A stretch of 64,000 bases of DNA from an uncultured Methylomirabilota bacterium (GCA_963705305.1 OY970067.1:1856001-1920000), one strand, 5' to 3'. Counted from the stretch's first letter, positions 20,213-47,119 are shown. Numbers and translations are program-made. The notes: generated from the letters alone by a model not told the origin.

Positions 20213-20270
20213 GAATCAGGTACCGGATAGTATGCCGGGAATACCATGGGACTAAAAAAGGTACCGGACG

Positions 20271-22269
20271 GTATGCCGTGGATACTCTGGAACTCGCCGG
20301 TGGAAGTCCGGCCCCGGGAGCGGGCAGCGCGCCCGGGTAGCTCGAGGGAGGTGCGAGGGGTAACCCAAGGCATCGAGTTCCCTGACGAGCGCGTCCGACG
20401 GACGTGCGCAACCTCGCAGGCCGTAGCGTGCAGCGAACCCAGGGGTAGCCTCGTTAACTTCAGTGAGGGCGTCGACTCCGTTGTCCGGGGAGGAAGACCG
20501 GTGCTTGGGTGACCACCGCGGCTGTCGGGTCATCTGAGGCCCTCCGGGGTAGCAGGGATGGCATGCGGGGACAGCTTCAGAGGGCACCACGGGAGAGCCT
20601 GGCCAGTGGCCCACAGGAGGCCAACCGGGGCGTATAAGGCACCGCCGAAGTCGCCGCCGGGCTGCCCAGGCAGTCGGAGCGGCCCACAGTACCGCCAGCA
20701 CCCGACGGACAACACAACCGTTGGGGAGGGAAGGGGCCGTGCTCTCACCACGCTTCCCACGGCGGGACGCGAGGAGGATTGCTGTGAGGCTTGAACCTCC
20801 AGAAGCAGTGCGCACCCTCCAGCGGAAGCTTTACTGCAAGGCCAAGTCGGAGCCCACCTTCCGGTTCTACCTCCTCTACGACAAGGTCTATCGGGCGGAC
20901 CTCCTGGGTCACGCCTGGGCCTTGGTGCGCGCGAACGGGGGCGCCGCCGGTGTGGATGGCGTCACCATCGCCGCCGTCGAGGCGGACGGGGTCGGTCCGT
21001 TCCTCGCGCGTCTGGCCGAGGAACTCCGGACGCACACCTACCGAACCGATCCCATCCGGCGTGTAATGATCCCCAAGCGGAAGGGCGGGGAGCGGCCCCT
21101 CGGCATCCCCACCGTGCGGGACCGAGTAGTCCAAGCGGCCACCGTCTTGGTCCTGGAGCCGATCTTCGAGGCGGACTTCCAGCCGTGCTCCTACGGCTTC
21201 CGGCCGAAGAAGGACGCGCACCAGGCCCTGGCGGAGATCTCCCGCACGCTCGCGCAGGGCTACACGCAGGTGCTCGACGCCGACCTCACGGCCTACTTCG
21301 ACTCGATTCCGCACGGCCAACTCCTGGCGGCGGTGGCGCGCCGCGTGACGGACCGGGCCATCCTCCGGCTCTGCACGCAGTGGCTTCGCGCCCCGGTGGT
21401 GGTCGAGCGGGACGACGGGAAGCGGGAGACGCGAGGCGGCAAGCGGACTCGCCGCGGGACGCCACAGGGTGGGGTGATCTCCCCGCTGCTCGCGAACGTG
21501 TACCTCCACGCCTTCGATAGGGCGTGGCGAGCGGGCGGGCTGGAGCGTCGCTGGCAGGCCCGGCTCATCCGGTACGCCGATGACTTCGTGGTGTGCTGTC
21601 GGGCGAAGGCGGCCCAGGTGCAGGCGGTCGTGGCGGAGCAGCTCCAGGCGCTCGGGCTGACGCTGAATCCGGCGAAGACCCGATGCCTGGATGCGCACCA
21701 GCAGGCCTTCACCTTCCTCGGGTTCACGGTGCGGCTCGTGCGGAGCCCACGGACAGGGCGCCTGTTTCCTCTGATCCGTCCCTCCGCCGCTGCCCGCCAG
21801 CAGCTCCGGGACCGGGTAAAGGCCCTCACCGGCCGCGACCACCTGGCGCTGCCGACCCCGACGCTCATCACGGCGGTCAATCAGGTCGTCCGCGGATGGG
21901 CGGGGTACTTCCATTTCCAACACTGCACGCGCGACTTCAGCGCTCTACGGTGGTTCATCGAGGAACGGGTCCGGACGTACCTGCGGCGCAAGCACCGCCA
22001 TCGGACGCGAGCGTACCAGGCGCTCCCGTGCACTGTGCTCTACGGGCGTCTGGGGCTCTACCGGTTGCCCGTGCGGGCGCCCTGGACCCCTCCGACGCAT
22101 GCCGGGCGGTGAAGGTGACCGGAGAGCCGGATGCGGGCAAACCGCACGTCCGGTTCGATGAGGGGGCGCTGGGGCTCGAGCAGGGTCGGGCTCGTGAGGC
22201 ACCGCCAGACGAAAGGGGCGGGAACAGCTAGGCGCGACCTACCCTCGAATAGCCAGTGCTCTACTCTAC
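20271..22269 (+). mobile_element. Full-length group II intron (class F-like, tentative)
   Basis: 5' GTATGCCG; RT ORF; DV GAGCCGGATGCG..CGCACGTCCGGTTC; long DVI ending CTCTAC; joined flanks rebuild the uninterrupted repeat seen at 22794-22830. Confidence 0.9.
20784..22112 (+). CDS. ltrA: Group II intron reverse transcriptase/maturase, no endonuclease domain
   Basis: GVDG, RPLGIPTVRDR, SYGFRP, GTPQGGVISPLLANVYL, RYADD, GWAGYF; RBS GAGGAGG. Confidence 0.95.
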   Translation: MRLEPPEAVRTLQRKLYCKAKSEPTFRFYLLYDKVYRADLLGHAWALVRANGGAAGVDGVTIAAVEADGVGPFLARLAEELRTHTYRTDPIRRVMIPKRKGGERPLGIPTVRDRVVQAATVLVLEPIFEADFQPCSYGFRPKKDAHQALAEISRTLAQGYTQVLDADLTAYFDSIPHGQLLAAVARRVTDRAILRLCTQWLRAPVVVERDDGKRETRGGKRTRRGTPQGGVISPLLANVYLHAFDRAWRAGGLERRWQARLIRYADDFVVCCRAKAAQVQAVVAEQLQALGLTLNPAKTRCLDAHQQAFTFLGFTVRLVRSPRTGRLFPLIRPSAAARQQLRDRVKALTGRDHLALPTPTLITAVNQVVRGWAGYFHFQHCTRDFSALRWFIEERVRTYLRRKHRHRTRAYQALPCTVLYGRLGLYRLPVRAPWTPPTHAGR

Positions 22270-23162
22270 CCCTTTGGTCGCTAACTGCTTGAATTCCTTG
22301 AGAGGCGGTTTCGATTCTTGGCAGATTGTGGGTCTGGCGAGGACGGTGAAGAGGGATCGGACAGCATGCCGTGGATACGCTGGAACTCGCCGGTGGAAGT
22401 CCGGCCTCGGGAGTGGGCGTGCTCCCCGCGCCGCCCAGTTCCTGGGGGACGTTGTTGACTCAGTGGACTTGCCGACTGAGCGGAGGCGCCGAAAACTGCT
22501 GTCGGCCGTGCTTCGCATAATCAGGTGAGGGCTATCCCAAGCTCCTGAAGGCTCCCGATGACGCGCAGGCAGTTCTCGACGAGCTGGAACGCCTCACGGT
22601 GGTGGCACTGGCCGGGGAGGGGCGCTGTCTCCTGGGGCACCCGGGCAATAATTCCAGGGGACGTTGTTGACTCAGTGGACTTGCCCATCGAGGAAAAAGA
22701 TACCGACGCGATGCCAGTTCCTTGGACCTGGCGTCTCAGGGACGCTGGTCATGAGGCGCGGAGAGAGCCAGGCAGGTACGAATGTGGGTCTGTAAAAAGG
22801 GTACTGGACACTTTTGGGTCGCTAATTGCTTGAATTCCTTGAGGAGCGGCTTCAATTCTTGACCAAGGATGTGTTTGGCGAGGACGTTGAAAAGGGTGCC
22901 GGACAGCGTGCCGCAATTACGGGACGATGCTGCTTTACTTGTATTACGGTCTAATTTCCCAGGCCGGCGCCTCGGGCCGCGCCGCCCGGGCGGGGATCGC
23001 CTATATCTGAGTGGAGCGCCTCGGTCATCCCTGGCGGCCCCTCGCCGCGGTCTTGGGGATCTGCCGCGCCATGGCCTACCTGGGGGTGCGGGGCGGTGCA
23101 GAGGTTGGAGCGGAATCGCCCCCCGTGTCGCCAGGGCAAGGCGACGTAGATTGCAATGTCCC
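22270..23162 (+). repeat. Cluster of composite repeats: target-repeat units, intron 5' stubs and GGGGAC modules
   Basis: 22270-22363 resembles 22811-22905; intron stubs at 22364 and 22906; identical GGGGACGTTGTTGACTCAGTGGACTTGCC at 22445 and 22657; GGGAC..GTCCC element at 22921-23162. Confidence 0.85.
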
Positions 23163-23261
23163 GCACTTCATCCGGAGAATGCCGGAGATACAGAACCCGC
23201 GGTCCAGAGGAGAAGGCTCGCCTGAGCTCGCAAGATAAGGCTGCAGGTGTGAGGGAGTGAA

Positions 23262-24221
23262 ATGGCCAAAATCTTTGGTGGCAGGTGGAAGGTCAGGGAG
23301 GACTTAGAGACCGGCGGACAAGCGCATGTATATATCGTCCAGGATTCACGTGGAGAGGGGAGCGATCTGTACGTCCTAAAAAGATTGAAGAACCATAATC
23401 GGCTCAGCCGATTTGAGAAAGAAGTAAAAGCCGGAATGAAGCTCAAGCATCCCGGAATTGCGCCGATCGTGGCTTACTCGCTTTCCGAGCCATCGTACTA
23501 CGTCACGAATTACTATCGAGGCGGAACACTGACGAAAAGAGTTGAGGCTGGCGTGATGGCATCGCTTGATGCGCTTGTCCTTTTCGTTGAATTGTGCCAG
23601 ATCGTCCACTATGCACACTCGCAGGGGATCTTTCATCGAGACTTGAAGCCGGACAACATCGTTTTCGACGAAGATGATAACCCTATTATTATAGACTTTG
23701 GTCTGTGCTATTTCACGGATGAGGATAACCGACTGACGGAAACAATGGAGCAGGTAGGGTCCCGATTCTACATGGCTCCGGAAATGGAGAGGGGACGGTT
23801 GACAGAGGTGACTTCGGCGGTCGACTCATACTCACTCGGGAAGGTGCTTTATTTCATGCTAACCGGAAGGCACATTGCCAGAGAGGCATTCGCAGATCTT
23901 TCCGCCATCACTAGTGCTGCTCAATTGGAGTATGTGTCGGAGAGGATCCTAGCGCAGACCATAGTCGAAGATCCCGCCCGAAGACTTACGCCCGAGAAAT
24001 TAATCCCCATTGTTGAGACTGTATACAGGCTGATCGCAGAGCACTTCTATCCCGGCATTCAAGGTTCTTTATGCAGGTATTGCGGTGAAGGGACATATGG
24101 GCAAGGGATTGAGACGGTAATGCGCTTGCACGAGCCCGGGGTTGAACACTCGGTGACGTTCGATGCTTACATCTGTGGAAGATGCGGAAATGTCCAGTGG
24201 TTCCGACGGCAGAGGGGGTAG
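23262..24221 (+). CDS. Hanks-type Ser/Thr kinase with C-terminal zinc ribbon
   Basis: VLKRL, HRDLKPDN, DFG, YMAPE; CRYC...CGRC. Confidence 0.9.
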   Translation: MAKIFGGRWKVREDLETGGQAHVYIVQDSRGEGSDLYVLKRLKNHNRLSRFEKEVKAGMKLKHPGIAPIVAYSLSEPSYYVTNYYRGGTLTKRVEAGVMASLDALVLFVELCQIVHYAHSQGIFHRDLKPDNIVFDEDDNPIIIDFGLCYFTDEDNRLTETMEQVGSRFYMAPEMERGRLTEVTSAVDSYSLGKVLYFMLTGRHIAREAFADLSAITSAAQLEYVSERILAQTIVEDPARRLTPEKLIPIVETVYRLIAEHFYPGIQGSLCRYCGEGTYGQGIETVMRLHEPGVEHSVTFDAYICGRCGNVQWFRRQRG

Positions 24222-24250
24222 GGAGGAACGGAGTAATGCTGTGAATGGAA

Positions 24251-24404
24251 CTGGACAGTATGCCGTGGATACTCTGGAACTCGCCGGTGGAAGTCCGGCC
24301 CCGGGAGCGGACTTCGTCGTGAGCCCAGCCGAATAGCAACGCGCGGTGGGCCATCCGGCCTTCATGGCATCCTATGCCGCCCGACGGCGGGTTCGGCGAA
24401 GAAT
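24251..24404 (+). repeat. Target repeat + 55-nt intron 5' stub + shared tail
   Basis: CTGGACA|GTATGCCGTGGATACTCTGGAAC...; tail shared with 26032-26192. Confidence 0.85.
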
Positions 24405-24477
24405 GGGAGCCATACCCTCTTTAAATCACGAGGCTACGCCATATATGGTGCGCGTACCTTTTTTGCGGGAGCTAATC

Positions 24478-25977
24478 ATGCTTAATGAACAACAACGCCA
24501 GCGGGCATTGACGGCACTGCATCAATACCAAGAAGCGCGGAACCTTGTGCAAGAGGATGAGACGCTGGACCAACAACGCATGGCGCTGATCGAGAGCGAT
24601 TTAAGGCCGTTAGTTCAGTCCTACCTTGGAGGTGCCACCGAACTGTCTGAATTCAAATCGAGAATTGACAGCCTAAACAAGCTTAATCCTTTTTGGGGCT
24701 TCAAGGGTATCAAGGGCCAAATGTTCTTTAACATGGTGGTGAACGTAGCCGATAACCCGAAAGAATGCGATCAGGAAATCAAGTCTGCGGTTGCCCTGCC
24801 CACTAACGAGCAGATTGCCTCCAGTCGCATAAAAACCTTTGCCAGCTACGTGCAGCGACTTGGCGAGCAATGGGTGAGTGCTGGCAATACCCGATATGGT
24901 TGCCCGAAGCTCGGCAGTATCCCCTTTTTCCTCTCCTACTTCTGGCAGATCCAGAATCGCGACACCTGGCCCGTGTACTACACTAATACAAACGCATTTT
25001 TTATTGATGATACACGCTCCGGCTTAGCGTTCGTATCTGCGGCCTTCCACGCGGAGCGGGAAAGGCCCCTGACAGGCAATGGGCCGGGGCCACGTAACAG
25101 GAATTCATGCGTTTGTATTAGCAGTATCAATGCCATGGTAGACCTGAACCTTTGGCAACCCTCTGGTGAAATGGCCGAGGACTACTTGGCGTACAAGCGA
25201 CTGCATGAAGATTTGGGCCGGCTATTTGCCTCGGAGACCGGCCGTGGCTTTCAGCTCTACGATGTCGAGCACGTTTTCTGGTTCAAAGCCGGTAATCCGT
25301 ACGGGGCTGCACGGGCCGAAGAAGGGCGCGCTGCCAGCCACGACCTTGGAGCGCAGGCAAGCACAGGCGCGACCGATGACTCGAGTCGACTTCCTGAAAG
25401 CTATGTTCCGTCAATCGTGGCCATTCTTCCGCGCATCGCGCGGCATGAAGCTGGTCTTGAAGACCTCGCCAGGCAATCGGGCACAACCCTGGAGCGTGCG
25501 TTCGAGAAGTATATCGATGCGGCGTTGACCATGCTTGGCTATGAGACGAAGTTGCTGGGGCAGGGTCAAGGGCGCGTTCCGGACGGAGTAGCCGTGGCCT
25601 TGGACGACAGCTATGCGATTCTGTGGGACGGCAAGATTCGCCGCGGCGGGTACAGCATGGGGACGGATGATCGCACGATCCGCGAGTACATCTCGACTCA
25701 AAGCCGGGAACTGAAGCGGCGACGCTCGCTCAGGAATATCTACTATGTTGTCATCTCGAGCACATTTGTCGATGATTTCGACGAGTCTATTAGGTCTATT
25801 AAGATGGAAACCGACGTAAACGAGGTTGTATTGGTCGAAGCGGATGCCTTGGTTGCCATGGTCGATGCGAAACTGCGATCGCCTCTTCAAATATCTCTTG
25901 GCCCTGACGGCCTGTAGCGGCTATTCAGTTCAAGTGGAATTGTCAGCGCAAGTACCGTTATTGAGCAGTTGGTCTAG
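24478..25977 (+). pseudogene. Restriction endonuclease-like gene (FokI-type PD-DxK C-terminal domain) with an in-frame MITE and a premature TAG at 25915
   Basis: VPDGVA...ILWDGK...GYSMGTDDRTIREYI; the frame continues 19 codons past the TAG. Confidence 0.65.
24986..25118. mobile_element. 133-bp IS630/Tc1-type MITE
   Basis: TIR ATACAAACGCAT / ATGCGTTTGTAT flanked by a TA duplication. Confidence 0.85.
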
Positions 25978-26031
25978 GCCGATCTAGGTCGTAAATCGCG
26001 CGGGGGGGGCGAAAGCAGGAGAGGTGCGCAA

Positions 26032-26192
26032 TAAAAGTACCGGACAGCGTGCCGTGGATACCCTGGAACTCGCCGATGGAAGTCCGGCCTTGGGAGCGGG
26101 CTTCGTCGTGAGCTCAGCCGAACGGCAGCGCGCCTGGGCAATCCACCCCTTCTGGCATCCTATGTTCCCCGGCGGCGGGGTCGGTCAAGAAT
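26032..26192 (+). repeat. Target repeat + intron 5' stub + shared tail
   Basis: AAAAGTACCGGACA|GCGTGCCGTGGATACCCTGGAAC... Confidence 0.85.
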
Positions 26193-26226
26193 TGAAACCT
26201 TGCCCTCGTCAAGTCACGAGGTGACG

Positions 26227-27746
26227 CCCTAATCTCCGGCTAAGAAGTTGAGGGGGATCGCGAATCACGCAGCGGCCCGCAGTGCGCGCGGCCCGCGGGG
26301 TTGGCATCGGCCTTGCTTGGTTTCACCCAGTGGGTGCAAACACCACAAGGAGGAGAGCGATGCCCGACACCTCGCCCCGGTTGCCGTTCGAGATCGATGA
26401 CGCGATCGACCCCACGCTGGTCACGGGCCGGGCCGGGGTCCCGCTCGTGATCGAGCTGTTCCGCCAGCTCGGGGTGGCCCAGGCCGTCGACACCCACGTT
26501 GCGGTCAAGCAGCGGCAGCGCGGATTACCCCCCTCGCAGCTCGTGGAGAGTCTCGTCGCGTTGTGGACGAGCGGCGGGGACCGCTGCCAGGACCTCACGA
26601 CGCTCCGGGAGGATCAGGCCCTGGCCACGCTGCTCGGCTACCCCCTGCCGGCCGCGACCACGGTCCGGGACTTCCTCGAGGCCTTCCACGTGGAGGACGG
26701 GCCGCTCTGGGTGGCCGGGCCCGCGGCCACGGTCCCCCTGGAGTCCGCCCCCTTGGCGGGCCTCGGACAGGCGAACCGGACGCTGGTCGCGGGCGTCCAG
26801 CGCGGGGCCCGGGCGGCGACGGCCACCCTGGATGTGGACGCGACGCTCGTCGAGAGCCACAAGGACGCGGCGACCGTGGCCTACGACGGGACCCGGGGCT
26901 ACCAGCCCGTCGTGGTCCTCTGGGCCGAGCACGATGTCATCGTGCACGACCAGTTCCGCGATGGCCAGGTGCCCGCCGGGTGCGGCAACGTGCGCGTCCT
27001 CGAACAGGCGGTGGCCAACTTGCCCCAGGGCGTGGACCGCATCTCCCTGCGGGCCGACAGCGCCCTCTACGAGACGGAGGTCCTCCGCTGGTGCGAGGAG
27101 AAGAAAATCGCCTACGCGATTAGCGCCGATATGTCCGCGCAGCTCCAGGCCGAGATCCGGCGCCTCCCCGCGGCCGCCTGGCAGCTCGAGCGGGAGGAGC
27201 CCGAGGCGATCCGGGCCTGGGCCGAAGTCCCCTACGTCCCCGAGGATGGCGATCACCGGAAGGCGCGGCCGTGCGTTCGCCGCTACCTCGCGGTGCGTAT
27301 CCAGCGACGCCAGGGGAGCCTCTTCGCCGACGGGAGTAGCGTGCAGTACTTCGCCGTGGTCACCAATCGGCCGGAGGATGGGCTCACGATCCTCCGGTGG
27401 CACCGGGAGAAAGCAGGGACCATCGAGCACACCCATCACGTCCTCAAGACCGAGCTGGCGGCCGCCGCGCTGCCCAGTGGGAAGTTCGGGGCGAACGCCG
27501 CCTGGTTCCGGCTGAACGTGCTCACCTACAACCTGCTCACCGCGCTCAAGCGGTTGACCTTACCCGGAGATCTCCGGACCGCCCGGCCGAAGCGTCTCCG
27601 GTTCCTGCTGTTCAACACCGTCGGGAAGGTCGTCGCGCATGCCCGACGGACGCTCTTGCGGCTCTCGGGCGCCCTGCAGCACGCCTTGCTCGTCCGGGCG
27701 CGGCGCAAGATCGCCCGGCTGGCCACCGCTTAGCCGGAGATTAGGG
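26227..27746 (+). mobile_element. IS1380-family element
   Basis: Perfect 18-bp TIRs CCCTAATCTCCGGCTAAG / CTTAGCCGGAGATTAGGG; no TSD. Confidence 0.9.
26360..27733 (+). CDS. IS1380 transposase
   Basis: TLDVDAT, LRADSALY, KAGTIEHTH, FGANAAWF; RBS AAGGAGG. Confidence 0.92.
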   Translation: MPDTSPRLPFEIDDAIDPTLVTGRAGVPLVIELFRQLGVAQAVDTHVAVKQRQRGLPPSQLVESLVALWTSGGDRCQDLTTLREDQALATLLGYPLPAATTVRDFLEAFHVEDGPLWVAGPAATVPLESAPLAGLGQANRTLVAGVQRGARAATATLDVDATLVESHKDAATVAYDGTRGYQPVVVLWAEHDVIVHDQFRDGQVPAGCGNVRVLEQAVANLPQGVDRISLRADSALYETEVLRWCEEKKIAYAISADMSAQLQAEIRRLPAAAWQLEREEPEAIRAWAEVPYVPEDGDHRKARPCVRRYLAVRIQRRQGSLFADGSSVQYFAVVTNRPEDGLTILRWHREKAGTIEHTHHVLKTELAAAALPSGKFGANAAWFRLNVLTYNLLTALKRLTLPGDLRTARPKRLRFLLFNTVGKVVAHARRTLLRLSGALQHALLVRARRKIARLATA

Positions 27747-27830
27747 TTAGGCACCAAATGGTGTCCGGTACCTTTTTCGTACCTTTTTTAGGGCTTGCGA
27801 GCCCGCGAATGGGCAGAAGGAGGATGGGAC

Positions 27831-29033
27831 ATGGGAAAGACCTGTCGTATAGCGGCTCTTATGATTCTAGTTTTGGGGATTTCGCTGCCCTCGTTCGGGG
27901 CGCAGGGGAGCGGTGTCGGCAACCCGATCAAAGTGGGAAATCTCATCACCCTGACTGGGCCGAACTCAAGCCCTGGGATCGGCATCCAGCGGGGGATGAC
28001 GCTCGCAGTCGAGGAAATCAATAAGGCGGGTGGAATTCAAGGGCGCAAGATTGAGCTCATCAGCCGGGACACCCAAGGGGATCCGACGAAAGCTGTGAAT
28101 GCGGCCCTGGAGCTGATCAACAATGAGAAGGTGGAATTCATTGTCGGTCCCACGAACTCGGGCGAGGGGATGGCAACTACCTCGCTGATCTCGCGCCACA
28201 AACAGGTTCTGAGTATAGTGATCGGGGCGGCGGATGAATTGATTGATGCCGAGAAGTATCCCTACGCCTTCCGGATTTTCCCATCCAATTCCCAGTGGAT
28301 CGGTGCGGCGAACGATTACCTCGTGAATATCTTGAAGGCCAAGAAGATCGGTCTCCTGGGGGACACAACGGGCTATGGGACGGCATCGGTGAACTTAGCC
28401 GAGCGAATGCTCAAAGAGCGTGGGATAGACGTCGTTTACCGGGGCCTCGTGGAACCAACCCAAGCCGACGTGCTCGCCGATGTACGCAAAGCCCGAAGTT
28501 CGGGGGCCGAGGCGATGGACGTTTGGACGAATGCGACCGGCCTGATTGCCCGATTCCTGAACGGACGGGCCGAGTTGGGTTGGAGCGCCCCGTTTGCTGG
28601 TCATCCGTCCTTGGCTCATGCCCAGACGAAAGCCCTGCTTGCAAAGCCGGACAACTGGAAAGACGTGTACCAGGTTGGCTACCGATCCATGAGCTACGAC
28701 GAGGCCGGCACGTTGCCGGAGAGCACACAGAAGCTGCTGACACTTCTGAGGGAAGCGGGTGCGCCCATCGGCGACACCCCTCTGTTCTTTATTGCTTCCG
28801 GATACGATACGGTCCATCTCATTCGCTATGGAATGGAGGGAGCCGGCTCGAGCAAAGCAGACGACGTGCGGCGGTTCCTGAACTCCGGCAAGACATTTCC
28901 AGGGACCTGGTGTAGGTGCACGTATTCCCCAACCAACCATAACGGCTTCGCCACAGCCAACGTCGTGATGAACCGCGCCGATTCATTCCGGAGTGACGGA
29001 ACCTATGCCCTTGCCCCCGGCTACGGGAAGTAG
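27831..29033 (+). CDS. LivJ-type ABC substrate-binding protein (orphan)
   Basis: Signal peptide; AVEEINKAGGIQGRKIELISRD, YPYAFR. Confidence 0.88.
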   Translation: MGKTCRIAALMILVLGISLPSFGAQGSGVGNPIKVGNLITLTGPNSSPGIGIQRGMTLAVEEINKAGGIQGRKIELISRDTQGDPTKAVNAALELINNEKVEFIVGPTNSGEGMATTSLISRHKQVLSIVIGAADELIDAEKYPYAFRIFPSNSQWIGAANDYLVNILKAKKIGLLGDTTGYGTASVNLAERMLKERGIDVVYRGLVEPTQADVLADVRKARSSGAEAMDVWTNATGLIARFLNGRAELGWSAPFAGHPSLAHAQTKALLAKPDNWKDVYQVGYRSMSYDEAGTLPESTQKLLTLLREAGAPIGDTPLFFIASGYDTVHLIRYGMEGAGSSKADDVRRFLNSGKTFPGTWCRCTYSPTNHNGFATANVVMNRADSFRSDGTYALAPGYGK

Positions 29034-29043
29034 TCGCCGAGGA

Positions 29044-29280
29044 GAGGTCCCGGACAGCATGCCGTGGATACGCTGGAACTCGCCGGTGGAAGTCCGGCCT
29101 TGGGAGCGGGCTTCGGGCGTGTGTCGCATAATCAGATGAGGGCTATCCGATGCTCCTGAAGCCCCCCGATGACAAGCAGGCGGTTCTCGAAGAGCTGGAA
29201 CGTCTCGCGGTGGCGGCGCCTCCCCGGAAGCGGGACTGTCTCCTGGCGGACCTGGGCAAGGCGACGTAAATTGCAGCGCG
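29044..29280 (+). repeat. Target repeat + intron 5' stub + module shared with 22514-22650
   Basis: CCCGGACA|GCATGCCGTGG...; CGCATAATCAG.TGAGGGCTATCC module. Confidence 0.85.
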
Positions 29281-29312
29281 CTTTCTTCCAAGCGAGGCAA
29301 ACGAGGGATTTC

Positions 29313-29783
29313 ATGCGCCGAGCAACAGGAGCAAGGAATCAACAGACGGCCCGGGCCGGGGAGTATTTTGTCGCGGCGGAGTTGTCCCGGAGGGGGGCCT
29401 ATGCAGTTACATTTGCGGGTAACATGCCGCGAATCGACGTTCTCGCCAGCAATCTGGACATCTCTCGTACAGTGAGACTCCAAGTGAAGACACGGAAGGC
29501 AGGTTCTTGGCAAACCTCGATCGATGAGGGGAGGAGATGCCGAAGAACACAGAACAATACTGAATTCTGGGTCTTTGTCGATTTGGTTGATCCTCCGTCT
29601 TCCCCAGACTATTACGTTGTGCCCGCTTGGTGGATCCGACGCAACATTTTTCAGGCCCACCAGGCATATCTTGCGCGACATGGCGGTGTCCGCGCGGTCA
29701 GCCCTTCGTCGAAGCACCACAGCATCACGCTAGGCCGCATTCGCCAGTGGGAAGATCGGTGGGATTTACTGGGAATATTCTGA
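29313..29783 (+). CDS. Small PD-(D/E)XK nuclease-like protein
   Basis: GEYFVAAELSRRG...IDVLA...LQVKT. Confidence 0.7.
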   Translation: MRRATGARNQQTARAGEYFVAAELSRRGAYAVTFAGNMPRIDVLASNLDISRTVRLQVKTRKAGSWQTSIDEGRRCRRTQNNTEFWVFVDLVDPPSSPDYYVVPAWWIRRNIFQAHQAYLARHGGVRAVSPSSKHHSITLGRIRQWEDRWDLLGIF

Positions 29784-30459
29784 AGTCTGGCAGGTTCTGG
29801 GGGACGTTGTTGACTCAGTGGACTTGCCAATCAAGGGAGGTTATCGGAAGGCAGGGTGTGGAGATGCGGGGTCTCGCCGCTAGTCCGTCCCCGGGAAAGA
29901 CACCGAGGGGACGTTGTAACATTAATTACCTTGTTCGATGCCGGGGCGCTATGTCCACGAGTTGAGGATCTCCGGCGCCAAAGGCGGCGGGTAGGGATAG
30001 CGCACACGAAGGGAGAAAGACCATCCGGCAGAAGGCAGCGGACAGGCGATGAAAGGCCGGAGGCAGGGGCCGAGCACCGCGAGCCGGGCGGCGGGGCTGC
30101 CGAAGAATTGAAGCGGCCACGCCCCCTGCGTGTTTACTTCCCCCTGGTTCTGGCACCGCTCGCACCGGGCCGCATGGGTCACGACCGCCATATCAGCGCT
30201 CCCCCATCCAGAGCCACATGGGGTCACCCAGCAGAGCCGGTCGGGGGTTGTCCAGACTGAGCCACCCCAATGGTCGAACGGACAGCACTGGCGGCTTCTG
30301 GCGGTTTGTGTTATCTTCTTTAGGGTTGAGCGTGTGCCACGTCCAATCCTGAGCTTCGTGGGCCCCACGTCTCTCTTGGGCGATCCGCGGCGGCTCAGTG
30401 TGGGTGATCCAGGCAACCCTCCCTACGCGACCATTGACACGCATGGATCGCGCAGCACT

Positions 30460-30640
30460 GCTGGCCTGGTCCAATGCCTGCCCGCGTGCTCGCGACACCT
30501 CGATCTGGTTGTGCCCGTTTGGAGCTACACCAAGTACGGAGACCTTGCGAGCGTGGTCCCGGACCAGGTCCTCGCGCGGGCGGGACCGTACTATTCCCCG
30601 GGCATTCCTCAACAGCCGATTTCGTTGTCCCGCGGGCCAG
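30460..30640 (+). pseudogene. IS630-type transposase C-terminal relic
   Basis: CLPACSRHLDLVVPVWSYTKYGDLA resembles the LPxYxPxLNPxExxW motif. Confidence 0.45.
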
Positions 30641-30725
30641 GAAACACAAGCTGAGAAGGCGAAAGGAGCGATTGACGAAAGGTGTCATCGGTCACGGGTT
30701 CGTTTTGTCCAACAAGGAGGATTCG

Positions 30726-32366: not shown

Positions 32367-32382
32367 GACGGAACACCCCGAC

Positions 32383-32416
32383 GAGGAGGCGCAGAATCGC
32401 TCTGCGCCTCCTCTTT
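32383..32416 (+). terminator. Intergenic hairpin (terminator or mRNA stabiliser)
   Basis: 13-bp stem GAGGAGGCGCAGA/TCTGCGCCTCCTC followed by TTT. Confidence 0.7.
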
Positions 32417-34979: not shown

Positions 34980-35199
34980 CCGCATCGACTTCAGCGACAT
35001 TCCGGAGTTGACGGACGCGGAGCTGCGGCGTGCGCGCCGGGTGGGACGGCCGGCGACCGGCCGGGCGAAGCAGCTCATTGCCATCCGCCTCGATCCCCGC
35101 CTCCTGGCCAAACTCCGCCGGTTGGCAGCGCGGCAGGGGAAGCCCTACCAGACGCTCGTGCACGAGCTGCTGGAAGCCGCAGCCGCACGGGCCGCATAG
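34906..35199 (+). CDS. brnA: BrnA-family antitoxin (start may be 34969)
   Basis: IDFSDIPEL...GRP...IAIRLD...PYQTL. Confidence 0.88.
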   Translation: MIKKRSASPARAKPRAKSARHMPDSRIDFSDIPELTDAELRRARRVGRPATGRAKQLIAIRLDPRLLAKLRRLAARQGKPYQTLVHELLEAAAARAA

Positions 35200-35238
35200 C
35201 ACTGGGAAAAATTCTCGGGGTGAAAAAGGGTCCGGACG

Positions 35239-35436
35239 GTATGCCGTGGATACTCTAGCACTCGCCGGTGGAAGTCCGGCCCCGGGAGCGGGCAGCGCGC
35301 CCGGGTAGCTTGAGGGAGGTGTGAGGGGTAACCTGAAACACCGAGTTCCCTGACGAGCGCTCACCGAGGTGAGCGCGCAACCCCGTCCGCCGACGGCGGA
35401 TAGCGTGCAGCGAACCAGGCGGAGCCCCAGTAGCCT
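35239..35436 (+). mobile_element. ~200-nt 5' fragment of a related group II intron, inserted in the target repeat
   Basis: AAAAAGGGTCCGGACG|GTATGCCG..., colinear with 20271-20451. Confidence 0.85.
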
Positions 35437-35528
35437 GGATCCGGCGTGGTCAAGATGCCTCAAAGCGGCGGCGAGTAGCATGCATTCCTTGCGCGAGAAC
35501 CCCCAACAGGGCATTCCGGGAGGGTGGC

Positions 35529-37007: not shown

Positions 37008-37069
37008 GGAGAGACAGATTACCGGATGGCAAGGCGGCGCCTCCCCGCCCTCGCGTAGGGGGGACATAA

Positions 37070-37140
37070 GAAAGGTACCGGCCAGCATGCCGTGGATACG
37101 CTGGAACCCGCCGGTGGAAGTCCGGCATCCGGAGCGGGCA
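37070..37140 (+). repeat. Target repeat + intron 5' stub
   Basis: AAAGGTACCGGCCA|GCATGCCGTGGATACGCTGGAAC... Confidence 0.85.
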
Positions 37141-37197
37141 GGAGCAGGGCCCTCGCGCAAACGGAGGGGTTGGCCTGCGGAGGAGTGAAAGAATCCC

Positions 37198-37494
37198 ATG
37201 TTCCTGGCGATGACCATTCTGTGCGGGATCTTCCTGGGGTGGGCGGCGGGCCGGGAGGGCGTGCTCGCCATGGCGGTCCCGGCCGTGGCGGTGGCAGCGG
37301 TGCTGACCCTCGCCGGGTATCTGTGGTTCCTGCTCAAGACCTGGCGCCTGACGCTGCGCCGCGCCTCGGCCCACGGCCGCCGGGCGTTCCAGCGGGAGGT
37401 GGGAACGACGCTGGCCTGGTCGTTGATCTTCCGCCTCGTGGTCATGGCGGCGGCGGGCTCCCTAGCCTACTGGATTTCCGTTCTCATCCATTGA
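37198..37494 (+). CDS. Small membrane protein
   Basis: RBS GGAGGAG; three hydrophobic segments. Confidence 0.55.
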   Translation: MFLAMTILCGIFLGWAAGREGVLAMAVPAVAVAAVLTLAGYLWFLLKTWRLTLRRASAHGRRAFQREVGTTLAWSLIFRLVVMAAAGSLAYWISVLIH

Positions 37495-37506
37495 GAGAGA
37501 AAAGTA

Positions 37507-37766
37507 GGGGACGTTGCTGCTTTATTTGCATTACGTTCTGATCTCCCAAGCCGGCGCCACGGGCCGCGCCGACCGTAATTGAAGACGCCGCAAATCTCGC
37601 CAACTGGTGGGAGGATTCCTCGACGATCCCTTGCCACGCAGGGCTGGCGTCCCCCGGGCGGCCCCGCGCCCTGGCCCACCAAGCGGCCCGCCGGGGGGCG
37701 GCGCAGGCCCGGGGGTGGGTCCGCCTCCTGGGAGGCGAAGCAAGGCAACGCAAATTGCAGCGTCCC
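37507..37766. repeat. GGGAC...GTCCC-bounded miniature element
   Basis: Ends GGGGACGTTGC / GCAGCGTCCC; left part resembles 22921 and 34363, right part resembles 17370-17503. Confidence 0.75.
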
Positions 37767-37772
37767 GCATTT

Positions 37773-37895
37773 CGTGGTAAAGAGGACATCATCCACCTTC
37801 CGCCCGAGCAGCTTGTGGACGGCATCCTCCAGAAAGAGCAGCGCATCGGGGAGATCATGGGAGAGATCAAGCAGCTCCTGGAGAAGGAATTGTGA
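37773..37895 (+). pseudogene. C-terminal relic of a second hsdM
   Basis: RGKEDIIHLPPEQLVDGILQKEQRIGEIMGEIKQLL*; GTGA-coupled to the next gene. Confidence 0.55.
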
Positions 37896-38911
37896 AGCGC
37901 AGAGTCAAGCCCCGGGGTGTGGCGGAGCCCATTGCCGCGTACGGATCGGACCGCGGCGAGGTCGCGCTCTACCGGGCGCCCGATGGGACCGTGACCCTGG
38001 ATGTCCGGTTGGAGCGCGAGACCATCTGGCTGAACTTGAACCAGATGGCCGACCTGTTCGGGCGGGATAAATCCGTTATCTCCCGCCATTTGCGAAAGGT
38101 CTTTGGTGACGGGGAGTTAGAGCGGGATTCAGTTGTTGTTTTTTTTGCAACAACTGCCTCCGACGGAAAGACCTACCAAGTTGAATATTTCAACCTGGAT
38201 GCCGTCATCTCTGTAGGCTACCGGGTGAATTCAAAGCGAGGGACCCAGTTCCGGGTCTGGGCGACTGGCGTCCTGCGCGACCACCTCCTCAAAGGATATA
38301 CGGTCAATGCTCGACGGCTGAAGGAGTTGAACCAGGCCATCCGGCTGATCGCCGACGTGGCCGAGCGGCGGGAGCTGAAAGGGGACGAGGCGACCGCCCT
38401 TCTGCGTGTGGTGGCCGACTACAGCTACGCGCTCGACCTGCTGGACGACTACGACAATCAGCGGGTTGCGGTGGCCGGGACCACCCGGGCCGACGCTGTC
38501 GCAGTGACGTATGACGAAGCGCGGGATGCCATCGAGCGACTCCGAGGGAAGTTCAAGGCCTCCGACCTCTTCGGCCGGGAGAAAGACAACAGCCTGCGCG
38601 GCTCCCTCCAGTCGGTGATGCAGACGGCAGACGGGAAGGACGTTTACCCGAGCATCGAGGAGAAGGCGGCCCACCTGCTGTACTTCCTGGTCAAGAACCA
38701 TCCCTTCGTGGATGGCAACAAGCGCATCGCCGCCGCCCTGTTCCTCTGGTTCCTACAAAAGAATTGCGCACTCTACCGCCCTGACGGCACCAAGCGTATC
38801 GCCGACAACGCCCTCGTGGCCATGACCCTGCTCATCGCCGAGAGCAGCCCCGCGGAGAAGTCCGTGCTCGTCAGCGTCATCGTCAACCTCATCAACAAGC
38901 GGAACCCATGA
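37892..38911 (+). CDS. RhuM/Fic/DOC family protein
   Basis: FNLDAVISVGYRVNSKRGTQFR and HPFVDGNKR. Confidence 0.92.
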   Translation: MKRRVKPRGVAEPIAAYGSDRGEVALYRAPDGTVTLDVRLERETIWLNLNQMADLFGRDKSVISRHLRKVFGDGELERDSVVVFFATTASDGKTYQVEYFNLDAVISVGYRVNSKRGTQFRVWATGVLRDHLLKGYTVNARRLKELNQAIRLIADVAERRELKGDEATALLRVVADYSYALDLLDDYDNQRVAVAGTTRADAVAVTYDEARDAIERLRGKFKASDLFGREKDNSLRGSLQSVMQTADGKDVYPSIEEKAAHLLYFLVKNHPFVDGNKRIAAALFLWFLQKNCALYRPDGTKRIADNALVAMTLLIAESSPAEKSVLVSVIVNLINKRNP

Positions 38912-41655: not shown

Positions 41656-42694
41656 ATGAAAATGAAGGCCTTGATCAAGGAAACACCGCAGACGGGCGCC
41701 GTCCTCAGGGAAGTCGAGGTCCCCGGCATCCGGGACACCGAGGTCCTGGTGAAGGTGAAGCGAGCGGCCATTTGCGGGACGGATATCCACATTTATTTCT
41801 GGACCGCCTACGCTCAGCAGCGCCTGAAGCTCCCCATGATCTTTGGGCATGAGTTCTGTGGCGAGGTCGTCGAGGTGGGGAAGAACACCAAGCGCCTGAA
41901 GAAGGGCGACCTCGTGGCTGTGGAAACCCACATCCCCTGCGAGGTCTGCTTTCAGTGCAACACCGGACTGATGCACGTCTGCCGGGACATGAAGATCATC
42001 GGCGTGCACACGACCGGCACCTTCAGCGAGTATGCCGCCATCCCGGAGATATGCGCCTGGAAGCTCTCGCCCGCCACGTCCCCCGATATTGGCGCGGTCT
42101 ATGAACCCTTTGGAATCGGCGTCCACTCCTTGACCCGGCACAAGGTCGCGGGAAAGCGGGTCCTGATCACCGGGGCCGGCCCCATTGGCCTGTTCGCCCT
42201 CGCGGTGGCCAGGATGAGCGGCGCCATGAAGATCTTCTCGTCGGAACGTCAGCGAGGAACGGCTGGCGCTGGCCCGCCGGATGGGCGCGGACGTCGTCCT
42301 GAACCCCCAAAAGGTTGACGTGGTCAAGGAAATCATGAAGGCCACTGGAGAGTTCGGGGTGGACATCTTCGTGGAGCTTTCGGGCAACGGCGAAGCCTGC
42401 CAGACGGGCCTCAAAGCCCTGCGCCGAGGCGGCTCCGTGTCCCTGGTCGGGCTCTTCAACAATACCGTGGAACTCGATCTCGTGAATGACGTGATTTACA
42501 AGGAGGCGACGGTATACGGGATCACCGGCCGGACCATGTTCTCGACCTGGACCGAGGCGGCGGACATCCTCGACTCGGGCAACATCGACATCTCGCCCGT
42601 GCTCACCCATCATTTCCCCATGGAGGAGTTCGAAAAGGCCTTTGAAACGGCCCGCTCGGGCAAGTGCGGCAAGATCCTCTTTGACATCGGCTGA
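41656..42694 (+). CDS. tdh: L-threonine 3-dehydrogenase-like Zn dehydrogenase (+1 frameshift at ~42245)
   Basis: ICGTDIH, GHEFCG, ETHIPC, GAGPIG, GITGR, GKCGKIL. Confidence 0.78.
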
Positions 42695-45476: not shown

Positions 45477-45800
45477 CTACGCGAGAAGCCGGAGGCGCAT
45501 CAGCCGTTGCGCGAGCCGATAGATGTCCTCTCGGGATCCCTCGCGACGAGGTCCGACGGCGACCACGAGAACCTCTACCTGGGTCCGGCGCACCCGGTAG
45601 ATGATGCGGAATCGTTGGCCAGCGGCCCGCACGCTGCGGAAGCCTTTGAGTTCTCCGAGAAGCGACTTGCCTTGGAGCTCGGGATCGAGGGCGAGCCCGT
45701 CGATCCGCTCCCGAATTGTTTCCAGGGTGCGGCGATCTGTGATTGTCGCCAGCATGTTGCGGGCCGTCAAGGCTAGGCGGACGCGATATGGGCCCGGCAT
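45477..45800 (-). CDS. relE: RelE/ParE-family toxin
   Basis: GKSLLGELKGFRSVR...RFRIIYRV...VVAVGPR. Confidence 0.85.
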   Translation of the reverse strand: MPGPYRVRLALTARNMLATITDRRTLETIRERIDGLALDPELQGKSLLGELKGFRSVRAAGQRFRIIYRVRRTQVEVLVVAVGPRREGSREDIYRLAQRLMRLRLLA

Positions 45801-46075
45801 CACAGGTCCAGTTCCCGCTTCACCTTCTCCCACGGGATGGTCTTTCCGCTCCGCGCCTCCCTGACGCTTCGCCGCAGCGCTCGCATAGTCTCCTCATCTC
45901 CGAGGATCTCCAGGGTCTCTACCAGACTCTCGTAGAACTCCCACGGGAGCACCGCGAGCACGGGCTTTCCCCGCTTGGTCACGGTCACCGCGCTTCCCGC
46001 CGGGGGCTGGTTCAGCGCCTCGGCCAGCTCCAGCAATTGCGATCGAACCTGGGTGATGGACATCGTCTTGGTCAT
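45800..46075 (-). CDS. Phd/YefM-family antitoxin
   Basis: MSITQVRSQL...VTKRGKPVLAV...ETLEIL; TGTGCACA and TGTACA palindromes upstream. Confidence 0.88.
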   Translation of the reverse strand: MTKTMSITQVRSQLLELAEALNQPPAGSAVTVTKRGKPVLAVLPWEFYESLVETLEILGDEETMRALRRSVREARSGKTIPWEKVKRELDL

Positions 46076-47119
46076 GGGCACTCCTCCACACTGTGCACAT
46101 GAGTGTACATGCACCCGTCCTGGGTGTCAATCTCCGGCTCAGGCTCGGTCGTGTATCGAAGAGGACGTAGTTACCTTGATTACCTTAATTGCGACCAGCA
46201 TGCGGCCGCCTCAGCCTGTGGGTTGGGAGCCGTTGTTGACTCATCGGACGTGTCCATCGCGGGAAGGGGCCGGGAGGCATGCCGTGGAGACGCCGGGTAC
46301 AGGGGACACTGCAATTTCTGTCGTCTTCCGCAGAAAAGGCTATGGGACGGCTACGTGCCTCGTAGTGAGGGAGTGCACGGTCAGGGAGGACTCCGCCGCC
46401 TGCGCAGGAGGAATGAACGCGGCCAGGGGTGATGTGGACACAGGAGACTCAAGGCTTGAATCCCTGCGTGCCATTTGAGAGGAAAAATCAGAAACCTTCT
46501 GAGAACTGATCACGTGTATTTCCTCATGCGCGATTTTGATGCTTGGCGGTCAAAACTATCGGTAGGGGGCCGGGGAGAGCCGAATCTGCCAGTTGGGAGC
46601 CCGGCCCCAGCTCCGTGGGTGGCCGAGTAGCGCATTGCATGCTCGAGAGCGGCGAGGCCCGCGGAAACAATGAGGTGGCGCCGTCGCAAAAACGGGAGGC
46701 GCGCCCCGAATGGATTTGCGGGGCCTCTTTATAAGATGCCGCATCGTGGGTCGAGTCGTGTCCGCCCCTCATGCCCAAAACCCGGCATTGGCCAATATTT
46801 GACTCCATCCCCCTCGTGTGTCTTCCGTCACGCATTTCATTCCATTTAGTCAAAATGACATGTCACGAGTTTGGCGAGACTGCCACTATGGCATAAATGA
46901 TTCACACGAGACGACAAGCCACCCATCCACGAGCACCGGAAGCCCCTAAGTCCTTGGTAAGCTTCTGAATGGAGAGTGCTCGAAAATTTGGCAAGCCGCC
47001 TTCTTGGAACACCCGTTGCACTCGGACAGTCAACGTACCCCCGGATGCCAGGACCCAGAAGATCGGTGGTCGCCTGCATCGAAGGCGACCACAACGGCCC
47101 TTCATCAGGAGGCAACGGA

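Follow-up and report, generated by a model that had tools for sequence, protein, structure and literature searches.

The window is the whole 64,000-nt stretch of DNA that was analysed, from an uncultured Methylomirabilota bacterium; the host is described as a soil bacterium. A full-length group II intron of 1999 nt lies on its + strand at 20271..22269 (blastn, Rfam, Pfam). Rfam places a domain I-IV ribozyme (RF02003 group-II-D1D4-4) at 20294-20431, with 76.8 bits against a cut-off of 49, and DV-DVI (RF00029 Intron_gpII) at the intron 3′ end, 22122-22269, with 45.5 bits against a cut-off of 40. The intron-encoded ORF (20721-22112, + strand) has RVT_1 (5e-36) and GIIM (3.3e-15) domains in Pfam, and no Pfam endonuclease domain. 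A blastn search of the whole 5.65-Mb genome with the 1999-nt sequence found a second, 100% identical copy at 4098836-4100834. The two copies have a 17-nt 5′ exon in common, which is the homing site of the full intron (aaaaaaggtaccggacg, 20254..20270, + strand; the same 17 nt precede the copy at 4098836), and their 3′ flanks differ. An empty homing site is present on the + strand at 22795..22813, where homologues of the full intron's 5′ and 3′ exons are contiguous (aaaaagggtactggaca/cttttgggtcgc, the slash here and below marking the junction, in this case 22813/22814). The two identical copies with different flanks and this empty paralogous site confirm the intron boundaries. They also suggest that the intron is mobile, with identical copies behind the same 5′ exon. 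One mobile intron that appears to be live is accompanied in the window by a series of short, dead remnants of its 5′ end.

The homing site is a quasi-palindromic, REP-like repeat, AAGGTACCGGACA/CCTTT, linked to leftover pieces of RAYT-like transposase genes. CCGGACA of the 5′ exon has its full complement in the intron loop UGUCCGG (nt 212-218). Exact empty copies of AAGGTACCGGACACCTT occur at four places in the genome, with near-exact copies at others, and the palindrome flanks Y1 transposase-like genes on their 3′ side; it also occurs in inverted pairs (genome 4487524/4487653, about 130 nt apart) and as scattered solo copies. The repeat occupies spacers, behind stop codons, in an island of about 30 kb with low G+C and with restriction, kinase, nuclease, toxin-antitoxin and transporter cassettes. 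A 94-nt module, M (22270..22363, + strand), forms the full intron's 3′ exon and has a second homing-site-like sequence at its end. Module M is 80% identical to 22814-22913 and also related to 47681-47770, and M-like modules are found after empty sites elsewhere in the genome. A REP-like hairpin read from the sequence, GGTACCGG-ATAGTATG-CCGGGAATACC, lies at 20220..20246 (+ strand), and its last 16 nt resemble intron nt 1-16.

Pieces of the intron were sought across the genome by blastn with the intron itself and by nhmmer with a site-plus-stub profile. Five stubs match only intron nt 1-53..57 in the whole-genome blastn search, at 91-100% identity, and start at 22364/6, 24258, 26047/50, 29057/9 and 37085/7. 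All are on the + strand. Stub 1 (22364..22418; blastn 94% over nt 3-55, nhmmer E 9.8e-21) comprises nt 1-55 and is followed by GTGCTCC. Stub 2 (24258..24310; blastn) comprises nt 1-53 and is 100% identical to the intron. It is followed by TTCG and then, up to about 24443, by what remains of a RAYT-like gene's 3′ part; the same TTCG and RAYT-like remnant follow stub 3 (26047..26101, nt 1-55). Behind stub 4 (29057..29111, nt 1-55) there are TTCGGGC and two small ORFs, and stub 5 (37085..37141, nt 1-57) sits inside a piece of about 93 nt, 37054-37146, between two cassettes. A longer 5′ fragment of about 190 nt (35239..35426, + strand; intron nt 1 to about 180/190, 83% identity over 189 columns, Rfam D1D4-4 at 35262-35415) is followed by an RNB-domain gene. 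It was ruled out as a full intron, as Pfam identifies the ORF at 35529-37007 as an RNB/RNase II-type gene, not a reverse transcriptase.

The five stubs and the longer fragment all begin at intron nt 1, directly after a homing-site-like 5′ exon. All six lie within 17 kb in the window, with none elsewhere in the genome by blastn or nhmmer, and the window stubs are 85-94% identical among themselves. Stub nt 24-55 correspond to positions inside the D1D4-4 model of the full copy. Rfam and RVT_1 searches gave no DV-DVI or reverse transcriptase match beside any stub. The stubs are intron-derived, non-functional 5′ fragments.

The first-pass annotation had listed about nine 5′ stubs in the same register. 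All the sites are on the + strand, each preceded by a GGTACCGGAC-like homing site. Five of the nine are true stubs of about 55 nt, and its count of five sites ending near GGGAGCGGGC was right; the other four are the fragment at 35239 and three shorter matches. At 20230, 13 of the first 16 intron nt match, with a weak nhmmer match at 20218-20253 (E 0.021). A decayed short stub of about 21 nt lies behind a type C repeat at 46277..46297 (+ strand), with about 18 of the first 21 intron nt matching, and 80 nt there (46218-46297) align at 79% identity with a module of sister genome G006 made of type C repeat, site and full 55-nt stub. The 8-nt look-alike GCGTGCCG (22906..22913, + strand) behind a homing-site-like sequence is uncertain; its match ends after 8 nt, and it may be the end of M2, a copy of the duplicated 94-nt module M, and not a stub. 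Eight copies of GGMCRGYRTGCCG lie in the window, all of them + strand, where 100 shuffles predict 0.16, which puts the motif well above chance; the 8-mer GYRTGCCG by itself is not enriched (25 observed, 17.3 expected).

A genome-wide count and breakpoint map, as the first-pass annotation had proposed, gave six 5′ pieces with clustered breaks and no 3′ pieces. The five Rfam DV-DVI matches in the whole genome (E<=0.01) each adjoin one of five RVT_1 ORFs, leaving 0/5 orphans, and a blastn search of the genome (E<1e-3) likewise turned up no piece of this intron's 3′ end. The earlier remark that orphan 3′ stubs are missing was correct. The premise that abortive reverse transcription should leave 3′ fragments was mistaken, since a second, unrelated intron family in this genome is likewise present as 5′ fragments only (about 40 and 112 nt), and the literature reports that bacterial group II introns decay through 3′-end loss (PMC4496777, PMC4181065). 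The remnants are a tidy example of group II intron decay, not a new kind of element.

The common stub end is real. Stubs with ends at +47..+60 turn up again in three sister species as well as in metagenomes, and six or more different sequences follow the break. Among 21 genomes of the genus, about 11 stubs end at +53..+60 (five in G000, four in G006, one each in G007 and G004). The ends map to nt 43-67, the first hairpin of domain I with a high G+C content (CCCGGG-N13-CCCGGG, about 92% G+C as read from the sequence), whose two arms are the only CCCGGG sites in the intron. From metagenomes, 40 loci were picked by a pattern within nt 4-42, and 37 of them had at least 90 nt after the intron start. 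Most (33/37) run past nt 71, and four break at +47..+55 (L149, L150, L153, L165). Other metagenome truncations end at about +125-141 or +152, or begin as an internal deletion at about +165, so the hotspot is strong but not exclusive. Full-length introns in the metagenomes are preceded by the same site variants as the stubs, such as GGTCCCGGACA, which is found at stub 29057.

The tree that the first-pass annotation had suggested for separating a single capture from repeated insertion was built on 67 columns and leaves most branches unresolved. It places four of the five window stubs in a weak group (92/81, not starred). The stubs as a whole do not form a single clade, and their signatures, which recur in different full-length subfamilies, point to two or more intron subfamilies. 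The four grouped stubs have GCATG and/or ATACGCTGG- or CCTTGGG-type states in common. The shared states and the weak cluster would fit equally well a single stub copied locally or four insertions by a subfamily that is no longer present in the genome. An empty orthologous site was found for none of the five stubs, so the case for independent insertion is indirect.

Two stub groups share downstream DNA and were therefore copied as larger units. Members of the TTCG family (window 24258 and 26047, G006, one metagenome contig) share about 38-135 nt after the stub, and the TTCG start alone is common to G007 and window 29057. The CAGAGG family has two members, both in G006, and L149 probably belongs to it. 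The TTCG family combines signatures of three subfamilies, which requires gene conversion or recurrent formation. In the window, 24250-24443 is 80% identical to 26039-26231. Downstream of stub 2 lies DNA that matches a Y1 transposase-like gene of G007/G006 at its 3′ end, and a RAYT-like protein query matches 26134-26229 (tblastn, E 6e-7). An IS at 26227-27746 interrupts the RAYT-like remnant behind stub 3, with an inverted homing-site motif closing the remnant at 27763-27775; such a motif closes the 26047 element only, with a decayed counterpart at 24258.

We lean towards the view that the stubs are what is left of homing events after decay at a break hotspot, and that some were copied further together with neighbouring DNA. 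The source would be a group II intron family whose encoded protein has RVT and maturase domains and no endonuclease. It would home in the sense orientation, on the + strand, into the REP-like repeat AAAGGTACCGGACA/CCTTT, and several such sites would have been invaded over time, in independent homing events, by at least two intron subfamilies. Integrated copies would then lose their 3′ parts, as is usual for bacterial group II introns, with the left breakpoints piling up in the nt 43-67 hairpin to give stubs of about 47-60 nt. Some truncated copies would later have been duplicated or moved with adjacent DNA, as in the stub fused to a RAYT-like gene remnant. The local clustering of stubs follows from a homing site that is itself a REP-like repeat tied to RAYT-like gene remnants. 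Consistent with homing, the conserved left flank of the stubs is only the 11-17 nt or so expected to pair with the intron, and the left flank differs among stubs more than the stub sequence does. As a best guess, the hotspot would arise after integration, either by illegitimate joining of the microhomology type or because replication stalls at the hairpin.

The first-pass annotation had also proposed that a captured site with its 55 nt was amplified. A single truncation would have produced a module of about 70 nt (or a version of about 110-270 nt with RAYT-like remnant and inverted REP), spread as a non-autonomous repeat, perhaps REPIN-style in trans by RAYT-like Y1 transposases or by recombination between REP-like repeats. 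The copying of the TTCG and CAGAGG groups as units and the weak clade of four window stubs agree with this, and the right boundary at +55 is kept across contexts in four species and metagenomes. The stub-specific CCTTGGG is common to 26047, 29057 and G006a, inverted site-motif copies flank the 26047 element, and G006 matches window 26037-26141 at 92% identity over 105 nt. RAYT-like gene remnants, with type B and type C repeats (the 5′ flanks of RAYT-like genes), are scattered through the island, and adjoin intact Y1 transposase-like genes elsewhere. We nevertheless consider such a spread unlikely. A MITE- or REPIN-like element should have many near-identical dispersed copies and target-site duplications or terminal inverted repeats. 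The genome has only five copies, confined to 17 kb and no closer to each other than noted above, and no target-site duplication was seen at any stub. The right ends cluster at +47..+60 with at least six different junctions, the left end is conserved no further than the intron's own recognition sequence, and just one TTCG member keeps a clear inverted REP. The lack of monophyly, with signatures of different full-length subfamilies, also argues against a single origin.

Cutting at a fixed point, likewise raised earlier, is less probable still. A cut in the nt 43-67 hairpin of resident copies or fresh integration intermediates would yield an end that is then joined to other DNA. Candidate cutters are the intron RNP, acting at an IBS1 look-alike (nt 51-56, CGGGCA, for the true CGGACA), and a host nuclease, acting for example at CCCGGG or on hairpin loops. 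Breaks do cluster in this one hairpin: most stub junctions fall at +55 to +57, the intron's two CCCGGG sites flank the hotspot, and metagenome stubs L153 and L149 end exactly at GGCCCCGG. Pairing between the EBS1 loop and nt 51-56 is possible if one G-U pair is allowed, and a preprint reports a role of group II intron-like RTs in double-strand break repair by microhomology-mediated end joining (bioRxiv 10.1101/2022.03.14.484287). Self-targeting at the look-alike is the weak part of the idea. In the intron, 24 hexamers pair with EBS1 equally well or better (16 expected in shuffles), among them exact CGGACA at 436 and 1480, and no stub ends there. The loop motif shows partial, structurally imposed conservation across the Rfam family, cleavage at CCCGGG does not account for ends at +55..57, and there were no intron-in-intron copies at +56 in the loci examined.

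A functional RNA role for the stubs finds no support. Their folds are no more stable than those of shuffles (z +0.44 to +1.01; 127-173 of 200 shuffles fold as well), and their covariation is not above controls (77/500 shuffles reach the score). No Rfam model matches the stubs at E<=5, and 0 of 17 terminator-like and 0 of 9 promoter-like sites in 19500-38500 fall on any stub. The suggestion that site and stub were retained as a 3′-UTR structure, an intron-particle decoy or a plug against re-invasion is therefore highly improbable, even though the stubs lie 24-130 nt past the stop codon of a + strand gene and are co-oriented with it, the nt 26-42 hairpin is intact in most of them (93.8% of cells paired, one compensatory change), and a stub in place of the 3′ exon would leave a site that is no longer a normal target, since nt 43-55 also decay freely and homologous cassettes in other genomes have no stub.

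Several known systems resemble decayed homing remnants of this kind. Class C introns insert behind terminators and in attC sites. In Pseudomonas putida KT2440, two of nine intron copies are REP-associated (PMC1525189). As in both cases, the intron described here targets a short, repeated motif outside genes that is partly palindromic, and its insertions are therefore concentrated in spacers and spare the genes. It differs in that insertion occurs inside the quasi-palindrome, guided by a 7-nt EBS1-IBS1 match, and in that its ribozyme is of the Rfam D1D4-4 type with a normal-sized domain I. REP/REPIN-RAYT systems, reportedly described by Nunvar in 2010 and by Bertels and Rainey in 2011, similarly have a short extragenic palindrome at the 3′ flank of a Y1 transposase-like gene, in inverted pairs and solo copies. 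Unlike these systems, this genome has about a dozen good copies, not hundreds, and the stub-bearing units are chimeras with intron DNA for which mobilisation by a transposase is only putative. Solo LTRs form by recombination between two identical ends, and LINE remnants retain the 3′ end. By analogy only, the stubs are like solo LTRs and 5′-truncated LINEs as short terminal remnants that mark past retroelement insertions; here the 5′ end is retained instead and there is no terminal repeat.

The closest parallel is FRE652 of Sinorhizobium, an RmInt1-related remnant described as a fragmented group II intron without the 3′ terminus (PMC4181065). Remnants of both kinds are 5′ ribozyme pieces that mark former homing sites and lack a 3′ counterpart; they are kept in related species and adjoin transcribed genes and mobile DNA. 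The FRE652-type remnants, as presented there, are hundreds of nt long (652 and 487 nt) and mostly single, whereas here at least five stubs of about 55 nt stand in a row, share one breakpoint region and recur in sister species.

An integron cassette array with attC sites was also considered for the island and rejected: Pfam detected no integrase family in the 54 ORFs scanned, which are part of the window's ORFs, and site plus stub is not a long imperfect palindrome. The cassettes next to the stubs are independent of them. Homology of BrnTA homologues (five genomes) and of the RNB gene (G006) stops before site and stub, the RNB cassette (35470-37053) is present in G006 without any intron piece, and the two cassettes flanking 37054-37146 have other neighbours in G006.

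The source of the stubs is a full-length group II intron of the GGTACCGGACA lineage, 1999 nt long and lying on the + strand at 20271-22269, as delimited by Rfam, blastn and flank comparison. Rfam places domains I-IV at 20294-20431 and domains V-VI at 22122-22269. Pfam assigns RVT_1 and GIIM domains to ORF 20721-22112, and detects no endonuclease domain in it. The genome, a single contig of 5.65 Mb and 66% G+C, carries a second copy at genome positions 4098836-4100834, 100% identical to the window copy by whole-genome blastn. Both copies follow the same 17-nt 5′ exon (aaaaaaggtaccggacg) and have unlike 3′ flanks. An empty site is present in the window, where the homologues of the 5′ exon (22795-22813) and the 3′ exon (from 22814) are contiguous. 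With two identical copies, the intron looks still active.

We lean modestly toward reading the stubs as debris of this intron, left at a REP-like landing pad, with a sharp breakpoint hotspot and some secondary copying. The stubs themselves are real and non-random. A blastn search of the whole genome with the intron and an nhmmer search with a site-plus-stub profile agree. Five + strand pieces behind variants of the homing site (AAAGGTACCGGACACCTTT) match only intron nt 1 to 53-57 (22364, 24258, 26047, 29057 and 37085), the one at 24258 with 100% identity over 53 nt by blastn. The first-pass annotation had listed nine such sites, of which these five stand as stubs of about 55 nt. The site at 35239 (+) is instead a longer 5′ fragment reaching intron nt ~180-190 by blastn, with a further Rfam domain I-IV match at 35262-35415; it is not a full intron, as the ORF behind it is of RNB/RNase II type (Pfam). 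The other three are shorter. On sequence reading, 20230 (+) is a 16-nt look-alike within a small REP-like hairpin, and 46277 (+) is a decayed stub of ~21 nt whose surroundings match, with 79% identity over 80 nt, a module of the sister genome G006 that has a full 55-nt stub. The 8-nt match at 22906 (+) is uncertain and may be merely the end of a duplicated 94-nt module. Both searches found no similar piece outside a 17-kb stretch of the window, except the second full copy. Within the window, the 13-mer GGMCRGYRTGCCG occurs eight times against 0.16 expected, always on the + strand, and the stop codon of a + strand gene lies 24-130 nt upstream of each stub.

The common stub end near +55 (the intron nt at the break), noticed at first pass in the window, recurs in G006, G007, G004 and metagenome loci. 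Across the genus (21 genomes), stubs with ends at +53 to +60 number five in the window, four in G006, one in G007 and one in G004; other lengths are +71 in G013 and ~+36 in G005. A stub-core scan of a wider genome collection returned only 12 loci, all in the same genus and all already known from the genus search. The metagenome scan used a pattern within intron nt 4-42, which makes it blind to downstream sequence, and yielded 40 loci. Where at least 90 nt follow the intron start, 33 of 37 loci run past nt 71 and four break at +47 to +55 (L153, L149, L165 and L150, the last being an internal deletion). Further altered loci are L144, ending at ~+125-141, L152, at ~+152, and, less clearly, L162. 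L154 retains both ends but is an ORF-less relative: its internal deletion begins at ~+165 and reaches the 3′ part of the reverse transcriptase ORF.

With related junctions grouped together, the sequence after the break takes at least six forms. TTCG follows at 24258, 26047 and 29057, in G006, in G007 and in L165. CAGAGG...GTAGGCAGTCGGCAG follows at two sites in G006 and probably in L149. Single junctions are GTGCTCC (22364), GAGCAGG (37085), AAGGCCT (contig C31 of G006) and GGCGGGT (G004). All of these junctions fall within the hairpin CCCGGG-N13-CCCGGG at intron nt 43-67, whose arms are the only two CCCGGG sites in the intron. The hotspot is unusually sharp, and decay in this intron family is non-random. 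What is new is the confinement of breakpoints to a single 25-nt, G+C-rich hairpin where domain I begins, seen in four species from one Methylomirabilota genus and also in environmental contigs. The hotspot gives a testable way into the question of how such introns are disabled by bacteria, or of how integration fails.

There are plausible ways in which such a hotspot could arise. Top-strand replacement synthesis after integration would start at the 5′ exon, and could stall or switch template at the first G+C-rich hairpin. Alternatively, the G+C-rich tract might simply favour microhomology joining. A cryptic 5′ splice site with cDNA-mediated imprecise intron loss was attractive because the metagenome fragments in L153 and L144 run directly into an intact empty site. 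This candidate was rejected, as the breakpoints of these two fragments do not follow words resembling IBS1, the exon word that pairs with EBS1 of the intron, and the usual CCTTT 3′ exon is missing behind every window stub. Intron nt 1-5 are required for catalysis, which also counts against a cryptic 5′ splice site. Because CAGCGCGCCYGGG comes after the extra DNA in the TTCG stubs, they were also considered as introns whose hairpin loop had gained 24 nt. We reject this as the main reading since the same words belong to a RAYT-like (Y1 transposase-like) gene, and some ambiguity attaches to it.

Evidence on a single or repeated origin of the stubs is mixed. The first-pass annotation suggested that site and stub had been captured and amplified as a module, and part of this holds. 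TTCG stubs have 38-135 nt of downstream DNA in common, which in the window is the 3′ remnant of a RAYT-like gene, and three of them also share CCTTGGG; CAGAGG stubs have a common flank too, and four window stubs form a weak clade (92/81). However, stubs are dispersed over an otherwise unresolved tree, in which the automatic 'stub' label includes four full-length copies of a divergent lineage, so that its counts are rough. Stubs also bear signatures of more than one full-length subfamily: the live intron of this genome has the form GTATG/ATACTCTGG, and GCATG/ATACGCTGG has full-length members in metagenomes only. The 5′ exon is more variable than the stub, and the right-hand partners are unlike. 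Pure amplification of a site-plus-stub module is unlikely. Any tree of stubs would also be blurred by gene conversion from the live copy. Such conversion is suggested at 24258, where the stub equals the live intron over 53 nt but identity between its flank and the 26047 flank is only ~80%.

Cutting of occupied sites at a fixed point in the nt 43-67 hairpin, also proposed at first pass, fares worse, and we regard it as improbable. Self-targeting by the intron particle could have drawn on intron nt 51-56 (CGGGCA), which mimic the IBS1 word CGGACA, but 24 intron sites pair with EBS1 as well as these do (16 expected from shuffles), and no stub ends at either of the two exact CGGACA words inside the intron. 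Restriction at CCCGGG would account for two stubs, those ending at GGCCCCGG, and leaves the +55 to +57 majority unexplained. Genome-wide, CCCGGG is mildly under-represented (5482 vs 7346 expected from base composition), and GGTACC is also under-represented (1044 vs 1935).

The first-pass annotation noted no orphan 3′ stubs, and this extends to the whole genome, in which all five domain V-VI matches (E ≤ 0.01) are paired with the five RVT_1 ORFs. It had also expected abortive retrohoming to leave 3′ fragments. Two published accounts describe the contrary, 3′-end loss, in bacterial group II introns (PMC4496777, PMC4181065), and one describes conserved 5′ fragments of 652 nt and 487 nt (PMC4181065). 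Since such loss is already known, stubs as such are ordinary; they are a variant of known intron decay and no new element. A second, unrelated group II intron family in this genome has a full copy (genome 1125701-1127660, − strand) and 5′ fragments of ~112 and ~40 nt (genome 373264-373374 and 494353-494391), and no 3′ fragment of it was found in the genome. The genome holds more than 50 copies of its 16-20-nt 5′ exon (...gcaggctgctgaaa), so this family too homes into a repeat.

The landing site of the window intron is a REP-like repeat of a RAYT-type system. Its CCGGACA is fully complementary to nt 212-218 of the intron, the loop UGUCCGG. The motif is almost identical to its reverse complement, intact Y1 transposase genes of RAYT-like type in G007 and G006 carry an inverted copy at their 3′ flank, and two spacer repeats in the window, type B (22921, 34365, 37508) and type C (22448, 22660, 29803), correspond to the sequence flanking the 5′ side of Y1 transposase-like genes, likewise intact, at genome 4273690 and 4482926. 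These observations together point to the RAYT link. In Pseudomonas putida, two of nine group II intron copies are likewise tabulated as REP-associated (PMC1525189). A further repeat, type D, lies at 34288 and 40819, and the second intron copy likewise has type C and D repeats upstream of it. Inverted homing motifs at 27763 and 40893 sit just upstream of genes. Exact empty copies of AAGGTACCGGACACCTT are found at genome 1317148, 4487524, 4487653 (−) and 4970547 (−), unoccupied despite two identical and apparently live introns; the inverted pair at 4487524-4487669, ~130 nt apart, has the appearance of a REPIN-type doublet. Several near-exact copies elsewhere in the genome are followed by the ~90-nt module M, as in the 3′ exon of the window intron. 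A 223-aa ORF without a Pfam match (47239-47910, −) holds a homing-site-like motif and a module M copy in antisense, so the dispersed module may derive from the gene family of this ORF.

Such a REP-like, RAYT-linked landing pad explains how IS copies, remains of introns and cassettes for defence or toxin-antitoxin functions come to gather in the same spacers. In this island, at ~15-47 kb, G+C falls to 52-60% in many 1-kb bins, and nearly all genes lie on the + strand. They include a type I restriction system, an HD/adenine-methylase fusion, a protein kinase, a FokI-like cleavage-domain protein, an IS, binding-protein transporters, BrnT/BrnA, the RNB protein and a RhuM-Fic protein. The 1520-bp IS (26227-27746; DDE_Tnp_1_4 transposase, ORF 26282-27733) has ~30 copies genome-wide, mostly 99-100% identical, and splits the RAYT-like remnant behind stub 26047.

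A function for the stubs is very improbable. The idea that they were co-opted as a 3′-UTR structure finds no support: folding of site plus stub gains no stability over shuffles (z +0.44 to +1.01), the two small stub hairpins have a single compensatory change among 117 cells and a covariation score reached by 77 of 500 shuffles, none of 17 terminator-like and 9 promoter-like sites in 19500-38500 falls on a stub, and Rfam has no match at the stubs at E ≤ 5. RNA sources were contigs of distant soil and sediment metatranscriptome or metagenome runs, holding at most 0.21 of the sampled words. Over 20100-22500, contigs from four runs derive from related introns, mostly 90-95% alike, with stub 22364 outside their coverage; they contain no joint of nt 56 to the 3′ exon, and bear on those relatives rather than on expression or splicing in this organism. 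In annotation, these ~70-nt pieces should be labelled intron remnants, not small RNAs.

BrnT/BrnA (34657-35201) and the RNB gene (35470-37053) behave as portable cassettes: their counterparts elsewhere in the genus have 78-91% identity, and homology ends sharply. In five other genomes (BrnTA) and in G006 (RNB), homology stops before site and stub, and the neighbours are unrelated. Site and stub are thus a separate piece of ~90 nt between cassettes, for example at 37054-37146. Searched against the genus, the flanks of 35239/37085, 29057 and 24258/26047 matched cassettes set in other contexts, and no orthologous site, empty or filled, was found.

These cassettes also allow a far-fetched model, in which site and stub are scars of an RNA-level accident that built the island as well. 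Integrated intron RNA would break in the nt 43-67 hairpin loop after reverse splicing, and reverse transcriptase would repair the damage by switching template to other nucleic acids, or by joining onto them through microhomology; these could include transcripts of cellular or foreign origin. In this way gene cassettes lacking promoters would be inserted in sense orientation, following a 55-nt stub, and the group II intron would act as a device for capturing cassettes, resembling an integron in some respects. The gene array, strictly co-oriented, is compatible with this, cassette homology begins 16-60 nt upstream of start codons right after stubs 29057, 35239 and 37085, and the RNB cassette shared with G006 extends from a start resembling a 5′ UTR to a hairpin lying 46 nt beyond the stop codon, but the BrnTA cassette ends are unlike transcript ends, and we give the model the least credence of all.

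An 848-aa ORF at 17666-20212, with N6-adenine methylase-like and HD phosphohydrolase domains, lies directly downstream of a type I restriction-modification operon (11741-16553) and a HepT-like ORF. Two + strand ORFs that overlap (41656-42318 and 42281-42694) hold ADH_N and ADH_zinc_N domains, and together are probably a zinc alcohol dehydrogenase broken by a frameshift.
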